Shown piece by piece: positions 7,163 through 13,704 of a stretch of DNA of 32,000 bases (position 1 is its first letter; each line of letters opens with the position of its first letter). The position numbers and the translations under genes are program-made. The stretch comes from Pseudomonas aeruginosa (GTDB lineage: Bacteria > Pseudomonadota > Gammaproteobacteria > Pseudomonadales > Pseudomonadaceae). The notes under the pieces are model-generated. The model ran no database searches. It saw only the letters and a list, made by a program, of their open reading frames with translations, and was not told the origin of the DNA. Location of the stretch: assembly GCF_001457615.1 (NCBI RefSeq), contig NZ_LN831024.1, positions 5,160,001 through 5,192,000 of the forward strand, written 5' to 3'.

Positions 7163-8758
7163 TCAGGCGCGTATCTGCGCCCAGTCCAGGCCGAAACGCC
7201 CCAGGTACTTGCGCAGCCGGTCGGCGTCGTTGGGGTTGCGCTTGTCCTGGCGCGAAACGGCAAACAGCCGGCGTCCCGCCTCGGAAAGGGTCTTAGCCCC
7301 GCGGCACACCTCCAGCACCGCCTGCAGTTGCAGGCGGTCGAACAGATCCAGGGCCTCCACCCGCTGCCCCAGCAGATCGGCCAGTGGCTCCCGGCCCGCA
7401 TCGAGCCCCCAGGCCTGGCGCAGGCGGAGGATCTCCTCCTCGACCAGCGCCTCGTCGATCCGCCCGTTGTCGGCCAGGGTCGCCATCCGTGTGATGGAAG
7501 CCGACAGCTCGCGGAAGTTGCCGGCCCAGCGCGCTTCGCTGGAACCGGCGAAGGCCAGGTAGCGACGCTTGGCCTCCAGGTTGAAACGCACCTGCCGCCC
7601 TTGCTCGCGGGCGTGCCGCTCCAGTTCGAAGTCGATGTTCGGCTCGATGTCCTCGCGGCGTCCAGCCAGGCCCGGCAGCTCGAAGGTCCACAGGTTGATG
7701 CGGGCGAACAGGTCCTCGCGGAACAGGCCTTCGGCCACTCGTCCGCGCAAGTCGCGGTGGGTCCCGGCGATAAGCTGGAAGTCGCTCTCCACCTCACGGT
7801 CCGAACCCAGCGGGAAGAAGCGCTTCTCTTCGATAGCCTTGAGCAGCATCGCCTGTTCGTCGGCGCCCAGCTCGCCGATCTCGTCGAGGAACAGCATGCC
7901 ACCGTCGGCTGCGCGCAGCAGGCCTTCGCGCGCATTCTGCGCGCCGGTGAAGGCGCCCTTGACGTGACCGAACAGTGCCGACATCGCGCCGTCGCCGCGC
8001 AAGGTGGCGCAGTTGACCTCGACGAAACGCCCGTCGAGCTGGTGCCGGCTGCGCTTGAGTTCATAGATGCGCCGGGCGAGGAACGATTTGCCGGCACCGG
8101 TCGGCCCCACCAGCAGCATGGGTGCCCGCGAACGCACGGCGACCCGCTCGATCTGCTCGATGGAGCGGTTGAAAGCGGCATTGCGCGTGGCGATTCCCGA
8201 CTTGAGAAAAGCCAGGCTTTCCTCCTGTTCGCGGCGGAACCGCGAGGCGATGCGGTCGTAGCGGGACAGGTCGAGGTCGATCAGCGTCGCCGAGCCCTCG
8301 GGATGGCGCGCCTCGTCCTTGCGCCGCGACGGCGAGGTCTGCACCAGCCGGGCCGGCAGGTAGCGCGCCTCGGTAAGGAGGAACCAGCAGATCTGCGCGA
8401 CATGGGTCCCGGTGGTGATATGCACCAGGTAGTCCTCGCGCTCGGTGTCGAAGGGGTAGGCGCTGACGAAATCGTGCAGGGCGCCATAGACCTCCTCGAA
8501 GTCCCAGGGGTTGCGCAGTTCCATCTGCTGCAGGCGGACCTCGGTATGCGGCGACACCGCGGCGATGTCGGCGCGAATCCGCTCGGCCAGGCCGAGGTCG
8601 CGGGCGTCGTTGCCGTGGATCAGTTCGAGGCGGTCGATCAGCAGGTCCGGCTGCTGGCACAGGCCGATGCTCGGCCGCCACTTTTGCCAGCGCGCCGCGC
8701 CCTTGCCGAGACGGTCGAGGGTGGCGCCGATGAAGCCGATGGCGACCGTGCGTTTCAT
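7163..8758 (-). CDS. rtcR: sigma-54-dependent transcriptional activator RtcR (CARF-like N-domain + AAA+ + HTH)
   Basis: N-terminal RtcR/CARF-type domain (VAIGFIG...HITTGTHVAQICWFLL). The AAA+ module has Walker A GPTGAGKS, the sigma-54 contact loop GAFTGA, and Walker B LFLDEIGEL. The gene is divergent from an rtcB/rtcA operon. ATG at 8758; GTG alternative at 8761. Confidence 0.92.
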   Translation of the reverse strand: MKRTVAIGFIGATLDRLGKGAARWQKWRPSIGLCQQPDLLIDRLELIHGNDARDLGLAERIRADIAAVSPHTEVRLQQMELRNPWDFEEVYGALHDFVSAYPFDTEREDYLVHITTGTHVAQICWFLLTEARYLPARLVQTSPSRRKDEARHPEGSATLIDLDLSRYDRIASRFRREQEESLAFLKSGIATRNAAFNRSIEQIERVAVRSRAPMLLVGPTGAGKSFLARRIYELKRSRHQLDGRFVEVNCATLRGDGAMSALFGHVKGAFTGAQNAREGLLRAADGGMLFLDEIGELGADEQAMLLKAIEEKRFFPLGSDREVESDFQLIAGTHRDLRGRVAEGLFREDLFARINLWTFELPGLAGRREDIEPNIDFELERHAREQGRQVRFNLEAKRRYLAFAGSSEARWAGNFRELSASITRMATLADNGRIDEALVEEEILRLRQAWGLDAGREPLADLLGQRVEALDLFDRLQLQAVLEVCRGAKTLSEAGRRLFAVSRQDKRNPNDADRLRKYLGRFGLDWAQIRA

Positions 8759-8868
8759 CACTGCTTATCCTTCAAGATAAAGATCGATATGAAAATATAT
8801 AGAAATAGCCAGGCATCTCTCCATCGAATTCGCCGACGAAGCGCAATAAAAAATTTATTCACCTTTAA

Positions 8869-8881
8869 AATCAAACAGTTA
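8869..8881 (+). promoter_or_regulatory. candidate IHF site between the AT-rich upstream region and the sigma-54 promoter
   Basis: AATCAAACAGTTA matches the IHF core WATCAANNNNTTR. It lies about 30 bp upstream of the -24 element, the usual architecture of sigma-54 promoters. This is a motif match only. Confidence 0.35.
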
Positions 8882-8910
8882 AGCAAGAAACAGTCTCATC
8901 GATAAAAACC

Positions 8911-11833: not shown

Positions 11834-11869
11834 CGGGCGCCCTGTGGCGCCCGCTGGGGAAGAATCGAA

Positions 11870-12682
11870 ATGAACAGGGAAGAACGCCATCCGCTCCCCG
11901 CCGCCATGCGCGAGCGGGTACTGGATGAGCTGGAACGGATCGAACGCGAGCACGACGTAGTCGTGCTCTACGCCTGCGAGTCGGGCAGCCGGGCCTGGGG
12001 CTTCGCTTCGCCGGACAGCGACTACGACGTACGCTTCGTCTATGTGCATCAGCCCGAGTGGTATCAGCGCGTCGAGGAACCTCGCGACGTGATAGAACGC
12101 CCGCTGAGCGACGAGCTGGACATCAGCGGCTGGGAGCTGCGCAAGGCGTTGCGCCTGATGCGCAAATCCAACCCGGCCCTGCTGGAGTGGCTCGGCTCGC
12201 CGCTGGTGTATCGGGAAGAGCCTGGCGTGCGCGAGGAACTGCTCTGGCTGGGCAACGCCTTTCACTCCGTACCTGGCAGCCGCCATCACTACCTGTCGAT
12301 GGCACGCAAGAACTACCGCGGCTACCTGAAGGGCGACAGCGTCCGGCTGAAGAAATACCTCTACGTCCTGCGCCCGTTGTTCGCGGTGCGTTGGCTGGAT
12401 GCAGGCCTGGGCTTGCCGCCGGTGGCGTTCGAGAGGCTAGTGGAAGCCACACTGGACGACCCGTCGCTGCGCGAAGAGCTGGATGCCCTGCTGAGCCTCA
12501 AGCGTCAGCGCGACGAATCGGCCTACGGCCCTCCGCGCCTGGCGCTGCAACGCTTCATCGAAGCGGAGTTGCTCCAGGCCGAACGAGGGGCCGCCCAACC
12601 AACCGGCGCGCGCCAGGACAGCCGACTGCTGGATCGCTACCTCCACGACAAGATATGGCAATACACAAGGGAAACCTCATGA
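11870..12682 (+). CDS. Pol-beta-superfamily nucleotidyltransferase domain protein (COG3541-like), RtcB-associated
   Basis: 270 aa. The N-terminal minimal NTase motif ESGSRAWGFASPDSDYDVRFVY is a G-S...D-x-D signature. The stop codon overlaps the rtcA start (ATGA at 12679-12682). Confidence 0.85.
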   Translation: MNREERHPLPAAMRERVLDELERIEREHDVVVLYACESGSRAWGFASPDSDYDVRFVYVHQPEWYQRVEEPRDVIERPLSDELDISGWELRKALRLMRKSNPALLEWLGSPLVYREEPGVREELLWLGNAFHSVPGSRHHYLSMARKNYRGYLKGDSVRLKKYLYVLRPLFAVRWLDAGLGLPPVAFERLVEATLDDPSLREELDALLSLKRQRDESAYGPPRLALQRFIEAELLQAERGAAQPTGARQDSRLLDRYLHDKIWQYTRETS

Positions 12683-13704
12683 GAAAGGACCTCATCGAAC
12701 TCGACGGCAGCGAAGGTGGCGGGCAGATCCTGCGTAGCGCCCTGAGCCTGTCGATGACCAGCGGCCAGCCGCTGCGCATCCGCAACATCCGTGGCCGGCG
12801 CAGCCGTCCGGGGCTGCTGCGGCAGCACCTCACCGCGGTGCGCGCGGCGGCGGAAATCTGCGCGGCCGAGGTCGAGGGTGCCGAGCTCGGCTCACGCGAG
12901 CTGGCGTTCCGGCCCGGTGCGATCCGCGCCGGCGACTACGCCTTCGCCATCGGCTCCGCCGGCAGTTGCTCGCTGGTACTGCAAACCCTGCTGCCGGCGC
13001 TGCTCGCGGCCAACGGCGAAAGCCGGGTGAGGATCAGCGGCGGCACCCACAATCCACTGGCGCCGCCGGCGGACTTTCTCCGCGACAGCTGGCTGCCGCT
13101 GTTGCAGCGGATGGGCGCGGAAGTCGACCTGGAACTGCTGCGCCACGGCTTCGTACCCGCCGGCGGTGGCGAGCTGCTGGCGCGGGTACGCCCGGCACGC
13201 TGGCGGCCGCTGCAACTGGAGCATCCCGGCGCGGCGCTGCGGCGCCAGGCGCGGGCGCTGCTCGCCGGGATTCCCGGGCACGTCGGCGAGCGTGAGCTGG
13301 AGAGGGTCCGCCAGCGCCTCGGTTGGAGCGACGAAGAACGCCAGCTGGAGTTCCTCGCGGAGGACCAGGGGCCGGGCAACGCCCTGCTGCTGCGGATCGA
13401 CTGCGAGCACATCTGCGCGACCTTCTGCGCCTTCGGCCAGGCCGGCGTCAGCGCCGAACGGGTGGCGGAACAGGTCGCGACGCAAGCCATCGGCTGGATG
13501 GAAAGCGGCTGCGCGGCGGACGAGCACCTCGCCGACCAATTGCTGCTGCCCATGGCCCTGGCCGGCGCCGGCAGCTTCACCACGCCGCGGCTGAGCGCCC
13601 ATCCGCAAAGCAACCGCCGGGTTATCGAACGCTTCCTGCCGGTGAGGATCGGCGACCAGGCGCTGGACGGCGGCGGTCATCGCATCGTCATCACATCGGC
13701 TTGA
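12679..13704 (+). CDS. rtcA: RNA 3'-terminal phosphate cyclase RtcA
   Basis: 341 aa. LDGSEGGGQILRSALSLSM..GQP..I.NIR..R..PGL..QHL...RAAAEI is the RtcA family signature, with further conserved blocks GSAGS..LVLQTLLP and DEHLADQL. ATG at 12679 in the same frame as the 548-aa track ORF. Confidence 0.95.
   Translation: MRKDLIELDGSEGGGQILRSALSLSMTSGQPLRIRNIRGRRSRPGLLRQHLTAVRAAAEICAAEVEGAELGSRELAFRPGAIRAGDYAFAIGSAGSCSLVLQTLLPALLAANGESRVRISGGTHNPLAPPADFLRDSWLPLLQRMGAEVDLELLRHGFVPAGGGELLARVRPARWRPLQLEHPGAALRRQARALLAGIPGHVGERELERVRQRLGWSDEERQLEFLAEDQGPGNALLLRIDCEHICATFCAFGQAGVSAERVAEQVATQAIGWMESGCAADEHLADQLLLPMALAGAGSFTTPRLSAHPQSNRRVIERFLPVRIGDQALDGGGHRIVITSA

Follow-up and report, generated by a model that had tools for sequence, protein, structure and literature searches.

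The RNA-repair operon and its control region

The window, i.e. the whole 32,000-nt stretch of DNA analysed here, corresponds to Pseudomonas aeruginosa PA4580-PA4588, and its positions 7163-13704 are the known RtcR/sigma-54-controlled RNA-repair operon of this bacterium, PA4581-PA4585 (PA numbering taken from PMC13637947 and PMC8619066). The operon belongs to the “Band-7 + b7a-tRNA + RtcB + RlaP” form defined earlier by comparative genomics. Several of its components have lately received attention: P. aeruginosa RlaP was characterised biochemically in 2025 (PMC12776372), and in 2026 a deletion of PA4582 (“PaFlo8”) was made (PMC13086221) and PA4581.1 was flagged as an odd tRNA (PMC13637947). Pfam, Rfam, ARAGORN and motif scanning recovered in place all parts listed in a preliminary description of this DNA (Table 1), which had read the order leader RNA, SPFH gene, rtcB, nucleotidyltransferase (NTase) gene and rtcA; every gene of this order was confirmed by Pfam.

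Table 1. Features of the PA4581-PA4585 locus (window coordinates)
Feature	Position	Strand	Evidence or remark
rtcR (PA4581)	7163-8761	-	Pfam RtcR/CARF E 1e-86 (aa 3-189), Sigma54_activat E 2.4e-49, AAA_lid_14
Palindrome TTATC-N6-GATAA beside rtcR start	8765-8780		kept in most of 19 aligned RtcR-type intergenic regions
Sigma-70-like promoter candidate for rtcR, TGGAGA-18-TATATT	8794-8823	-	consensus match only
IHF-like site AATCAAACAGTTA	8869-8881	+	~30 nt 5' of -24 element
Sigma-54 promoter TGGCACGCCGCTCGCT (TGGCACG-N4-TCGCT; -24 GG, -12 GC)	8911-8926	+	consensus match
Module A, three-helix junction	8927-9030	+	helices 8956-58/9025-27, 8964-71/8978-84, 8985-97/9010-24
Linker with hairpin	9031-9072	+	place of second, abutting tRNA-like element in other Pseudomonas species
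b7a-tRNA (PA4581.1), annotated “tRNA-Arg”	9073-9146	+	Rfam tRNA 50 bits; ARAGORN “tRNA-Arg(ACG)”
Module B	9147-9389	+	hairpin 9147-50/9156-59, then nested long-range helices, variable apex
Module B long-range helices	9180-86/9383-89, 9249-59/9371-81, 9260-64/9366-70, 9267-83/9346-62	+	RNAalifold
SPFH gene (PA4582, “PaFlo8”)	9418-10563	+	Pfam Band_7 E 6.8e-28, aa 152-323
GC hairpin, 10 bp, SPFH-rtcB gap	10577-10601	+	read from sequence
rtcB (PA4583), 3'-phosphate/5'-OH RNA ligase	10619-11833	+	Pfam RtcB E 9.5e-132, full length
GC hairpin, 8 bp, rtcB-rlaP gap	11834-11853	+	read from sequence
rlaP (PA4584), Pol-beta-fold RNA 3'-end nucleotidyltransferase	11870-12682	+	Pfam PF10127 RlaP E 4.7e-98
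rtcA (PA4585), RNA 3'-terminal phosphate cyclase	12679-13704	+	Pfam RTC E 1.2e-77, RTC_insert

The rtcR product joins a CARF-type sensor, as had been described, to an AAA+ sigma-54 activator domain, with a further region at the C-terminus; ATG at 8758 is the more likely start codon, rather than GTG at 8761. The gene is divergent from the sigma-54 promoter, and 59 of the 80 related gamma- and betaproteobacterial loci used for comparison have rtcR and the SPFH gene back to back. TGGCAC-N5-TYGCW occurs in the window only at the promoter, previously judged near-consensus (0.10 occurrences expected). In nearly all RtcR-bearing loci of the set a sigma-54 motif lies 446-584 nt 5' of the SPFH ATG; most RtcR-less relatives lack it. 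The IHF consensus is WATCAANNNNTTR; the element at 8869-8881 fits a putative IHF site, and ATCAA-N4-TTR is kept at this position in most of 19 aligned RtcR loci. The palindrome is a candidate RtcR enhancer or autoregulatory site, and the sigma-70-like match in front of rtcR was the only promoter-like one that a promoter scan returned between 6500 and 14500.

From its expected start at ~8938 to the SPFH ATG the leader measures ~480 nt. The short junctions reported in the preliminary description, a 55-nt and a 36-nt gap, each with a hairpin, and the ATGA overlap of the rlaP stop and rtcA start (12679-12682), were all verified. Inspection of the sequence found no T-tract 3' of either hairpin, and the terminator scan did not call the first one, at 10577-10601. 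Thus the claim that no intrinsic terminator separates the genes stands, whereas the one placed after rtcA was not convincing, as all that turned up there was a GC hairpin lacking a T-run, plus a weak scan match overlapping the ATG of the next ORF at 13806. The conserved promoter, IHF-like site and palindrome, the short junctions without terminators, the same gene order across two proteobacterial classes and the joint rise of the PA4582-PA4585 proteins in proteomics (PMC13637947) point to a single RtcR/sigma-54 unit comprising leader RNA, SPFH, RtcB, NTase and RtcA. Moreover, PA4582 was upregulated 3.2-fold on H2O2, alongside pyocin genes (PMC1250226), which agrees with the induction of the Salmonella operon by DNA damage (PMC7790460).

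A large conserved leader RNA accompanies the SPFH gene

The neighbourhood survey suggested earlier showed that the gene order recurs in Gamma- and Betaproteobacteria. SPFH followed by RtcB was found in 74 of the 80 loci and the complete window order in 21; since RlaP is encoded in just 36 and RtcA in just 28, the constant core is only leader RNA, SPFH and RtcB. The preliminary description of the leader as ~480 nt with a tRNA-like cloverleaf was correct but incomplete, as covariation revealed two further conserved structured modules flanking the cloverleaf. In a 33-sequence alignment (A4), 94.2% of the module A cells are paired, compared with 38-55% when the structure is slid, and 15 of 23 pairs have compensatory changes; shuffles reached values as high in 0/500 cases for four of five measures and in 2/500 for further pair types. 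The covariance model R2 detected module A in 78 of the 80 loci, among them RtcR-less loci outside model building. For module B, RNAalifold on 18 loci gave compensatory changes in 34 of 41 pairs, with 92.8% paired versus 29-45% when slid and a window MFE z of -2.24, and a variant of the same topology is present in RtcR-less loci. Neither module had a match in Rfam, and both stay with the SPFH gene when the type of promoter differs.

The tRNA-like element is equally well defined: the covariance model R1 scores 86.8 bits in the window, 74 of the 80 loci have a match at this offset, and the cloverleaf covaries (92.7% paired versus 30-43% when slid; 13/21 pairs compensatory). Its Rfam score, well above the gathering score of 29, the ARAGORN call and the expression of the RNA (PMC13637947) would suit the annotation, by which a normal, working tRNA-Arg(ACG) gene lies between rtcR and PA4582. 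Such a reading is already contradicted by the comparative data and we consider it highly improbable. At the same offset in the 74 loci stand many different “anticodons”, varying freely among related loci, or, in many species, a UUCG or GNRA tetraloop. Of 41 sequences, 32 cannot form pair 1:72 and 17 cannot form pair 2:71, leaving an acceptor stem of effectively 5 bp. The window copy keeps the conserved D/T elbow; it has a G1-G72 mismatch, carries C33 in place of U33 and U in place of A at position 20, and does not encode CCA (our sequence analysis; also PMC13637947). Hence, given the freely varying anticodon, the effectively 5-bp acceptor stem and the lack of CCA, the b7a element is a structural mimic and not a decoding tRNA-Arg.

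Many betaproteobacterial copies retain a 7-nt anticodon loop with U33, and RtcR-less loci carry arrays of ordinary tRNA genes, suggesting pressure from tRNA-directed toxins. Both observations would suit a decoy or sentinel for tRNA-targeting nucleases, which either competes with tRNAs or yields cleavage products that feed the CARF domain of RtcR. We regard such a role as unlikely: replacement by tetraloops or free variation in many species means that the anticodon-loop target is not conserved, the acceptor stem is shortened, and the nuclease studied in Salmonella left YrlA uncleaved (PMC7790460).

The number of tRNA-like elements is not fixed, as ~20 Pseudomonas loci have a second, distal copy, while the window gave a single covariance-model match. 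Furthermore, in lineages L012, L013, L024 and L026 the element has been lost and modules A and B, the SPFH gene and RtcB are kept, so the tRNA shape is not indispensable to the system. This dispensability would also suit a leader that acted only in cis, as a 5'-UTR device for mRNA processing, stability or translation, for instance through RNase P or RNase E entry at the tRNA-like fold, with no SPFH particle involved. In accordance with this, the elements are invariably located 3' of the promoter (or the upstream gene) and 5' of the SPFH start codon, module A of RtcR-less loci begins 9 nt after the upstream HNH gene, as for a co-transcribed processing signal, and ~28 nt separate the outer helix of module B from the ATG, leaving the purine-rich ribosome-binding region free. 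The free ribosome-binding site also speaks against control of translation by sequestration, no terminator/antiterminator alternative was seen in the leader, and a simple stability element would hardly need ~460 nt of covarying structure. In addition, PA4581.1 RNA was about half as abundant as ordinary tRNAs by qRT-PCR, with an unchanged level in a strain with strongly induced Rtc proteins (PMC13637947). An RNA abundant on its own and independent of operon induction fits better with a stable or separately made RNA than with a simple co-induced leader, and the published analogy with Ro/Y RNA, as related in the citing literature, likewise favours action in trans. A purely cis-acting leader thus seems rather doubtful, though it is the alternative that we take most seriously.

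The SPFH protein and related systems

PA4582 carries the NCBI name “slipin family protein” (99% identity to P. aeruginosa proteins) and begins with three beta-repeats; the SPFH domain comes next, followed by a long helix and a C-terminal region of very high conservation. In a PDB profile search aa 189-376 matched stomatin (E 2e-22), a match that takes in the oligomerising C-terminal region, and the N-terminal profile had no match by sequence. The AF2 model (pLDDT 85-92 over aa 1-190; low confidence for the C-terminal 57 residues) gave stomatin/HflKC as Foldseek matches. Neither the Kyte-Doolittle plot nor the model showed an N-terminal hydrophobic segment, and the plot peaks only once (1.66, aa 142-160), at the strand with which the SPFH domain begins its beta-sheet structure, in keeping with the earlier view of the protein as lacking a transmembrane segment. 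Stomatin and HflK/C cages share with PA4582 the SPFH domain, long helix and conserved C-terminal region, but have a membrane anchor. The major vault protein gave the only near-full-length Foldseek alignment, in which beta-repeats, SPFH-like shoulder and helix align over 378 columns (E 9.5e-8), with a TMq of only 0.32 and nine beta-repeats against three in PA4582. In the vault such a protein is paired with a small structured RNA, and the window would pair the two likewise. Deletion of paFlo8 in strain PA14 had no effect on growth, pyocyanin, protease, motility, biofilm or peroxide survival; tRNA-damaging stresses lay outside the assay set (PMC13086221).

Among known systems, the Salmonella rsr-yrlBA-rtcBA operon shares with the window a CARF-bearing RtcR, a sigma-54 promoter and, 5' of rtcBA, a tRNA-mimicking RNA together with a putative scaffold protein, as well as induction by DNA-damaging stress (PMC7790460; here PA4582 by H2O2, PMC1250226). 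In contrast, the window has no TROVE/Ro60 protein, its RNA is not YrlA (Rfam RF02553 15.8 bits, gathering score 69), no Ro-binding stem encloses its tRNA-like fold, and RlaP is extra. The E. coli rtcR/rtcBA system has the same regulator, promoter class, ligase and cyclase, but has no SPFH gene, no RlaP and no structured leader carrying a tRNA-like RNA. Closest are the systems of Burroughs & Aravind (NAR 2016), which, as presented in citing papers, have Band-7 beside RtcB, a tRNA-like ncRNA beside the Band-7 gene and a co-operonic PF10127 RlaP, so that gene content is identical and all components and their order match the window.

A model of the repair unit

The preliminary description placed the SPFH protein and tRNA-like RNA in the slot of Ro and Y RNA, with a third enzyme between ligase and cyclase. 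Our analysis supports this arrangement, which is already in print, as Burroughs & Aravind proposed in 2016, according to bioRxiv 10.1101/312249, that the pair acts as RtcB cofactor. The statement that the roles of the SPFH and NTase partners are not established holds for SPFH and is partly outdated for the NTase, since the RlaP enzymes of P. aeruginosa and P. fluorescens extend RNA 3'-OH ends by one or two NMP and in vitro made over-trimmed repaired tRNA chargeable again (PMC12776372). We propose that tRNA fragments made under stress would bind the CARF domain and activate RtcR, as in Salmonella, and that RtcR with sigma-54 would then drive the transcript, which opens with module A, the b7a RNA and module B and runs through the SPFH gene, rtcB, rlaP and rtcA. 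RtcA turns 3'-phosphate ends into cyclic phosphates, and RlaP restores one or two nucleotides on trimmed 3'-OH ends. The anchorless stomatin-like protein may form a soluble ring or cage with the leader RNA, whole or processed, as its RNA partner, comparable to Y RNA with Ro60 or vault RNA with the vault, and the tRNA-shaped elbow might gather RtcB, RlaP and RtcA with broken tRNAs.

Against this model stand the lack of a phenotype of the paFlo8 deletion in the assays used, the steady PA4581.1 level and the lineages that have lost the tRNA-like element. On balance we favour, with some confidence, an RtcR-controlled repair unit in which the SPFH ring or cage has the leader RNA as partner. The points possibly going beyond the work of Burroughs & Aravind, judged through the papers citing it, are modules A and B, the tandem second tRNA-like copy and the loss of the tRNA-like element; what may thus be new is that the tRNA-shaped RNA of these systems is embedded in a far larger conserved folded leader RNA.

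Gene content and transcription of the rtc locus

The window was identified as PA4580-PA4588 from the 99% identity of its SPFH protein to a P. aeruginosa “slipin family protein” and from the flanking genes, and the same PA locus tags are used for these genes in published work (PMC13637947, PMC8619066). The ORF list, Pfam, Rfam and ARAGORN bore out the order given in the preliminary description, in which a leader with a tRNA-like fold is followed by an SPFH gene, rtcB, a nucleotidyltransferase gene and rtcA. The nucleotidyltransferase belongs to PF10127, whose current Pfam name is “RlaP, RNA repair pathway DNA polymerase beta family”. 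As also proposed there, rtcR has a CARF-type N-terminal domain in Pfam and is divergent from a sigma-54 promoter with a motif unique in the window, and the three short junctions have the gaps, hairpins and overlap first described.

Coordinates of the genes, promoter elements, leader parts and junctions in the window
Feature	Position	Strand	Evidence or remark
NADAR gene (PA4580)	6553-7113	-	PF08719 E 8.7e-54; 49 nt downstream of rtcR, same strand
rtcR (PA4581)	7163-8761	-	Pfam RtcR (CARF-type) E 1e-86, aa 3-189; Sigma54_activat E 2.4e-49
Palindrome TTATC-N6-GATAA	8765-8780		beside the rtcR start codon
IHF-like ATCAA-N4-TTR	8869-8881		~30 nt upstream of the -24 element
Sigma-54 promoter -24/-12 TGGCACGCCGCTCGCT	8911-8926	faces repair genes	sole match in 32 kb versus 0.10 expected
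Module A	8927-9030		begins directly after the promoter
Hairpin linker	9031-9072		42 nt
tRNA-like element (PA4581.1, b7a-tRNA)	9073-9146		Rfam tRNA, 50 bits; ARAGORN call tRNA-Arg(ACG)
Module B	9147-9389		closes ~28 nt before the SPFH ATG
SPFH gene (PA4582)	9418-10563	+	Pfam Band_7 E 6.8e-28
SPFH-rtcB junction	10577-10601 (hairpin)		55-nt gap; 10-bp GC hairpin without T-tract
rtcB (PA4583)	10619-11833	+	Pfam RtcB E 9.5e-132
rtcB-rlaP junction	11834-11853 (hairpin)		36-nt gap; 8-bp hairpin without T-tract
rlaP (PA4584, PF10127)	11870-12682	+	Pfam E 4.7e-98
rlaP-rtcA junction	12679-12682		ATGA stop/start overlap
rtcA (PA4585)	12679-13704	+	Pfam RTC E 1.2e-77
125-aa ORF	13806-14183	+	starts 101 nt 3' of rtcA; no Pfam match; lipoprotein-like signal (LLGGC)

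RtcB and RtcA are encoded in one predicted transcription unit on the basis of Pfam and of uninterrupted reading: a terminator scan found no plus-strand terminator within the operon. The earlier statement that there is no terminator until after rtcA thus held inside the operon, but no convincing intrinsic terminator was found 3' of rtcA either, and a weak plus-strand match at 13788-13805 was discarded for its overlap with the start codon of the next ORF. Operon read-through into the 125-aa ORF, which lies on the same strand with no clear terminator between, is possible.

Conservation in related loci

Scanning one genome per species with the SPFH protein, we found a close relative in at least 579 species and analysed the best 80 loci, which come from Pseudomonas, Burkholderia, Ralstonia, Accumulibacter, Dechloromonas, Thiobacillus, Variovorax and others, together with one MAG labelled Desulfobulbus. 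Among these 80, RtcB lies directly downstream of the SPFH gene in 74 and a divergent RtcR is present in 59, while RlaP occurs in 36, RtcA in 28 and the exact gene order of the window in 21. Conservation of gene order beyond a narrow clade, a check set beforehand, is therefore evident from the survey, and its counts define a constant core of leader RNA, SPFH and RtcB with RlaP and RtcA as frequent accessories. The NADAR gene next to rtcR recurs in just 3 of the best 80 loci (L003, L005, L020) and hence probably does not belong to the system. Only one SPFH homologue was found in viral contigs, so the system is not typically phage-borne.

The motif TGGCACG-N4-TCGCW is found 446-584 nt 5' of the SPFH ATG in nearly all loci with RtcR, and the sigma-54 motif is missing from most RtcR-less loci. 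Two further promoter-region elements are conserved across Gamma- and Betaproteobacteria: the palindrome beside the rtcR start codon is a candidate RtcR enhancer or autoregulation site, and the IHF-like site a candidate DNA-bending site of the promoter.

Several related loci carry additional genes. In RtcR-less Burkholderiales (L052, L054, L057, L058, L060, L063, L064, L066, L070, L072 and L074), 1-13 ordinary-looking tRNA genes located 1-3 kb upstream of the SPFH gene precede the leader-SPFH-RtcB unit, and these loci look like an island joining spare tRNAs to RNA repair. In L054 and L064 an ORF of ~200 aa encoding an HNH endonuclease lies between the tRNA array and the unit, ending 9 nt before module A, and L054 has a 646-aa AAA+/M41-like ORF after RtcB. 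Some relatives have insertions in the operon that are absent from P. aeruginosa. In L001 (7178-7576) a 132-aa ORF, Cys-rich and zinc-ribbon-like, separates the SPFH gene from RtcB, as does a 361-aa ORF in L060 (7154-8239); RtcB is separated from RlaP by a 192-aa ORF in L003 (8800-9378) and by a 460-aa helical-repeat ORF in L009 (8820-10202).

The tRNA-like element

A tRNA-like element is located at a fixed offset, ~300-390 nt before the SPFH ATG, in 74 of the best 80 loci as detected by ARAGORN and by a covariance model of the element (CM R1). Over 41 distinct sequences, pairing in the cloverleaf reaches 92.7%, versus 30-43% in controls with the positions shifted; compensatory changes were seen at 13 of 21 pairs, with covariation at all five pairs of the anticodon stem, and the D- and T-arms are nearly invariant.

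Taken by itself, the Rfam score and ARAGORN call of PA4581.1 would suggest a real tRNA-Arg. This reading is contradicted by the comparative data and we consider it hardly credible. The “anticodons” of the orthologues differ by species (ACG, CCG, AAG, AGA, CAT, AAT, AAC, GAT and others), and in many species a UUCG or GNRA tetraloop stands in place of the anticodon loop. Acceptor pair 1:72 is unpaired in 32 of the 41 sequences and pair 2:71 in 17, leaving a 5-bp stem; CCA is not encoded in the element, and the copy in the window has a G1-G72 mismatch, C33 and U20. PA4581.1 thus does not show the features of a canonical tRNA-Arg, namely a 7-bp acceptor stem whose CCA is encoded or can be added, and a conserved anticodon, U33 and A20, the last being an arginine identity element. 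The absence of CCA and of A20 has also been reported (PMC13637947). Given the varied anticodon, the short acceptor stem, the absence of CCA and the G1-G72, C33 and U20 residues, the element is a structural tRNA mimic and not the annotated tRNA-Arg. The annotation is functionally wrong and misleading, and the anticodon loop is irrelevant to the function of the element.

A role of the tRNA-like RNA as a decoy or sentinel is improbable, since it fits poorly with the tetraloop-bearing copies. In published data, PA4581.1 RNA is present at about half the level of a normal tRNA and is unchanged on induction of the Rtc proteins (PMC13637947), and PA4581.1 was among the most up-regulated genes of a late cystic-fibrosis isolate.

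About 20 Pseudomonas species have a second, abutting copy, which is absent in P. aeruginosa. Two abutting copies were seen in L001-L010, L015-L020, L022, L023 and L029 (in L001, for example, at 5576-5650 and 5648-5722); in the distal copy the acceptor stem is complete, with 7 bp, and the “anticodon” usually resembles a tetraloop. At its position P. aeruginosa has the hairpin linker, and many Betaproteobacteria have a reduced distal element consisting of an acceptor-like stem and T-arm only. Both copies are lost in four Pseudomonas loci, and one Burkholderia locus has T-arm minihelices only. In L012, L013, L024, L026 and L059, modules A and B, SPFH and RtcB are kept and the tRNA-like fold is replaced by plain hairpins or T-arm minihelices. 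Consequently other RNA features of the system are more constant than the tRNA shape, and the fold is dispensable in some lineages.

Leader modules A and B

Another ~350 nt of covarying structure surround the tRNA-like fold and vary less than it does. Module A forms a three-helix junction which is 94.2% paired across the alignment (38-55% in shifted controls), with compensatory changes at 15 of 23 pairs. A model built exclusively from RtcR-type loci matched module A in 78 of the best 80 loci, including every RtcR-less locus with enough upstream sequence and the loci without a tRNA-like fold. Module B consists of a small hairpin followed by nested long-range helices (92.8% paired versus 29-45% in shifted controls; compensatory changes at 34 of 41 pairs), and RtcR-less loci have a variant of the same topology. 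Whole-leader RNAalifold gave no long-range pairing between A and B; the two modules fold independently. In Rfam 15, neither module had a match at E up to 10 (the sole match in 8880-9440 being the tRNA), and YrlA scored 15.8 bits in the leader, far under its gathering score of 69. No other non-coding part of the locus is as constant as modules A and B, which Rfam lacks.

The 10-mer CCCGCCGGTG occurs at 8979-8988 in module A and at 9177-9186 in module B (two matches versus 0.35 expected), and both copies are conserved across loci. The copy in module B pairs with CACCGGC at 9383-9389 and the one in module A is shared between two local helices; a duplication, a shared partner or protein site, or alternative pairing are possible explanations.

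A 525-aa ORF at 8986-10563 (+), which starts within the leader and extends through the tRNA-like element and the SPFH gene, was not accepted as a coding sequence. The compensatory changes and RNA-type indels, together with the alignment of the family N-terminus from 9418, indicate that its leader part is non-coding. Several database SPFH proteins of 509-534 aa (P0014, P0044, P0052, P0060, P0073 and others) appear to have been extended N-terminally into the structured leader by gene callers.

The SPFH protein

The AlphaFold model of PA4582 (mean pLDDT 70; 85-92 over aa 1-190) consists of three beta-meander repeats, an SPFH alpha/beta core, a long helix (297-331) and a C-terminal region that is very conserved and poorly modelled. 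The core, helix and C-terminal region are of stomatin/HflK type by sequence and structure, and oligomerisation is predicted: a sequence profile of aa 189-376 matched stomatin with E 2e-22 and Foldseek with E 8e-11. The best Foldseek matches were the cage-formers stomatin, HflK/C, erlin, prohibitin and flotillin, all over the C-terminal half, and the sole near-full-length alignment was to major vault protein (378 columns, E 9.5e-8, at a low TMq of 0.32). For the N-terminal region, the sole Pfam match was a weak Band_7 N-terminal one (E 0.015), and a profile of the beta-repeats had no match among PDB sequences at E up to 10. In contrast to membrane-anchored stomatin/HflK with their N-terminal TM or hairpin anchor, PA4582 has a hydrophilic N-terminus: a hydropathy scan found no hydrophobic segment there, and the beta-repeats are modelled as soluble structure at pLDDT ~90, in agreement with the initial view of a TM-less SPFH protein.

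Relation to known systems and proposed function

The Rtc system is already known, also in P. aeruginosa. The locus contains all components of the RtcR/sigma-54 Rtc operon, namely RtcR with CARF and AAA+ domains, a facing -24/-12 promoter, RtcB and RtcA. In Salmonella the CARF domain of RtcR reportedly binds tRNA fragments directly. The operon under RtcR control there is activated by damaged tRNAs, and RtcA is required (PMC7790460; PMC8619066). The P. aeruginosa locus likewise has the parts that citing papers give for the Band-7/b7a-tRNA/RtcB system (Burroughs & Aravind 2016): Band-7 beside RtcB, a tRNA-like ncRNA and, frequently, RlaP. According to bioRxiv 10.1101/312249, that study proposed tRNA-like RNAs as ligation cofactors and the RNA was then without experimental validation. 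RlaP was given its name after the 2016 study, and the rtcR-rtcB-rlaP-rtcA layout has been described in P. aeruginosa and P. fluorescens (PMC12776372). The locus differs from the Ro60/Y RNA module (Rsr-YrlA), as neither a TROVE Ro60 nor YrlA RNA was matched; Pfam found no TROVE domain in any operon protein. The proteins PA4582-PA4585 are co-induced (PMC13637947) and H2O2 induces PA4582 together with pyocin genes (PMC1250226), which indirectly supports the predicted transcription under RtcR and RpoN with damaged tRNA fragments as the trigger. Deletion of PA4582, named “PaFlo8” and placed in the rtc locus, had no phenotype in general assays (PMC13086221), and rtcB deletion changes T3SS/T6SS expression (PMC8619066).

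The operon, conservation and covariation evidence supports the original interpretation as an expanded Rtc RNA-repair cassette. RlaP extends RNA 3'-OH ends by one or two NMP and rescues aminoacylation of over-damaged repaired tRNA; this refilling of trimmed 3' ends was shown for the P. aeruginosa enzyme (PMC12776372). RtcA makes cyclic phosphate ends. The anchorless stomatin-like protein would form a soluble oligomer with the leader RNA, whole or processed, as its partner, and the tRNA-shaped elbow might help to gather broken tRNAs with RtcB, RlaP and RtcA. We regard this overall explanation as reasonably probable, the SPFH/leader-RNA scaffold being its weak part. Its main rival, in which the leader would act purely in cis on processing or stability, seems unlikely to us while outranking the other alternatives.

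Within the repair-operon explanation, a more far-reaching view is offered tentatively, as a doubtful yet conceivable one. On this view the b7a-tRNA may belong, as a single domain, to a large modular RNA of ~460 nt that is uncatalogued. Its parts would be the three-way junction of module A, a single or tandem tRNA-like fold and the nested long-range helices of module B. This RNA would have co-evolved with the anchorless, vault-protein-like SPFH protein and RtcB and would form with them a bacterial RNP cage for RNA repair. Since modules A and B are retained in loci that lost the tRNA-like fold, they, and not the tRNA shape, would be the RNA part that the system cannot do without.

In its first form the finding arrives again at a result that comparative genomics has published and at an operon already known from P. 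aeruginosa, and it adds little alone. The additions of the present analysis are descriptive: an annotation wrong in function, a tRNA-like fold dispensable in some lineages, and two covarying modules. P. aeruginosa is a tractable pathogen with existing mutants, in which the role of the anchorless SPFH protein and the purpose of the tRNA-like RNA can be tested. Should the leader RNA and the SPFH protein assemble into a particle, bacteria would have their own equivalent of the Ro/Y-RNA or vault particle, tied to the defined enzymology of RtcB, RlaP and RtcA.
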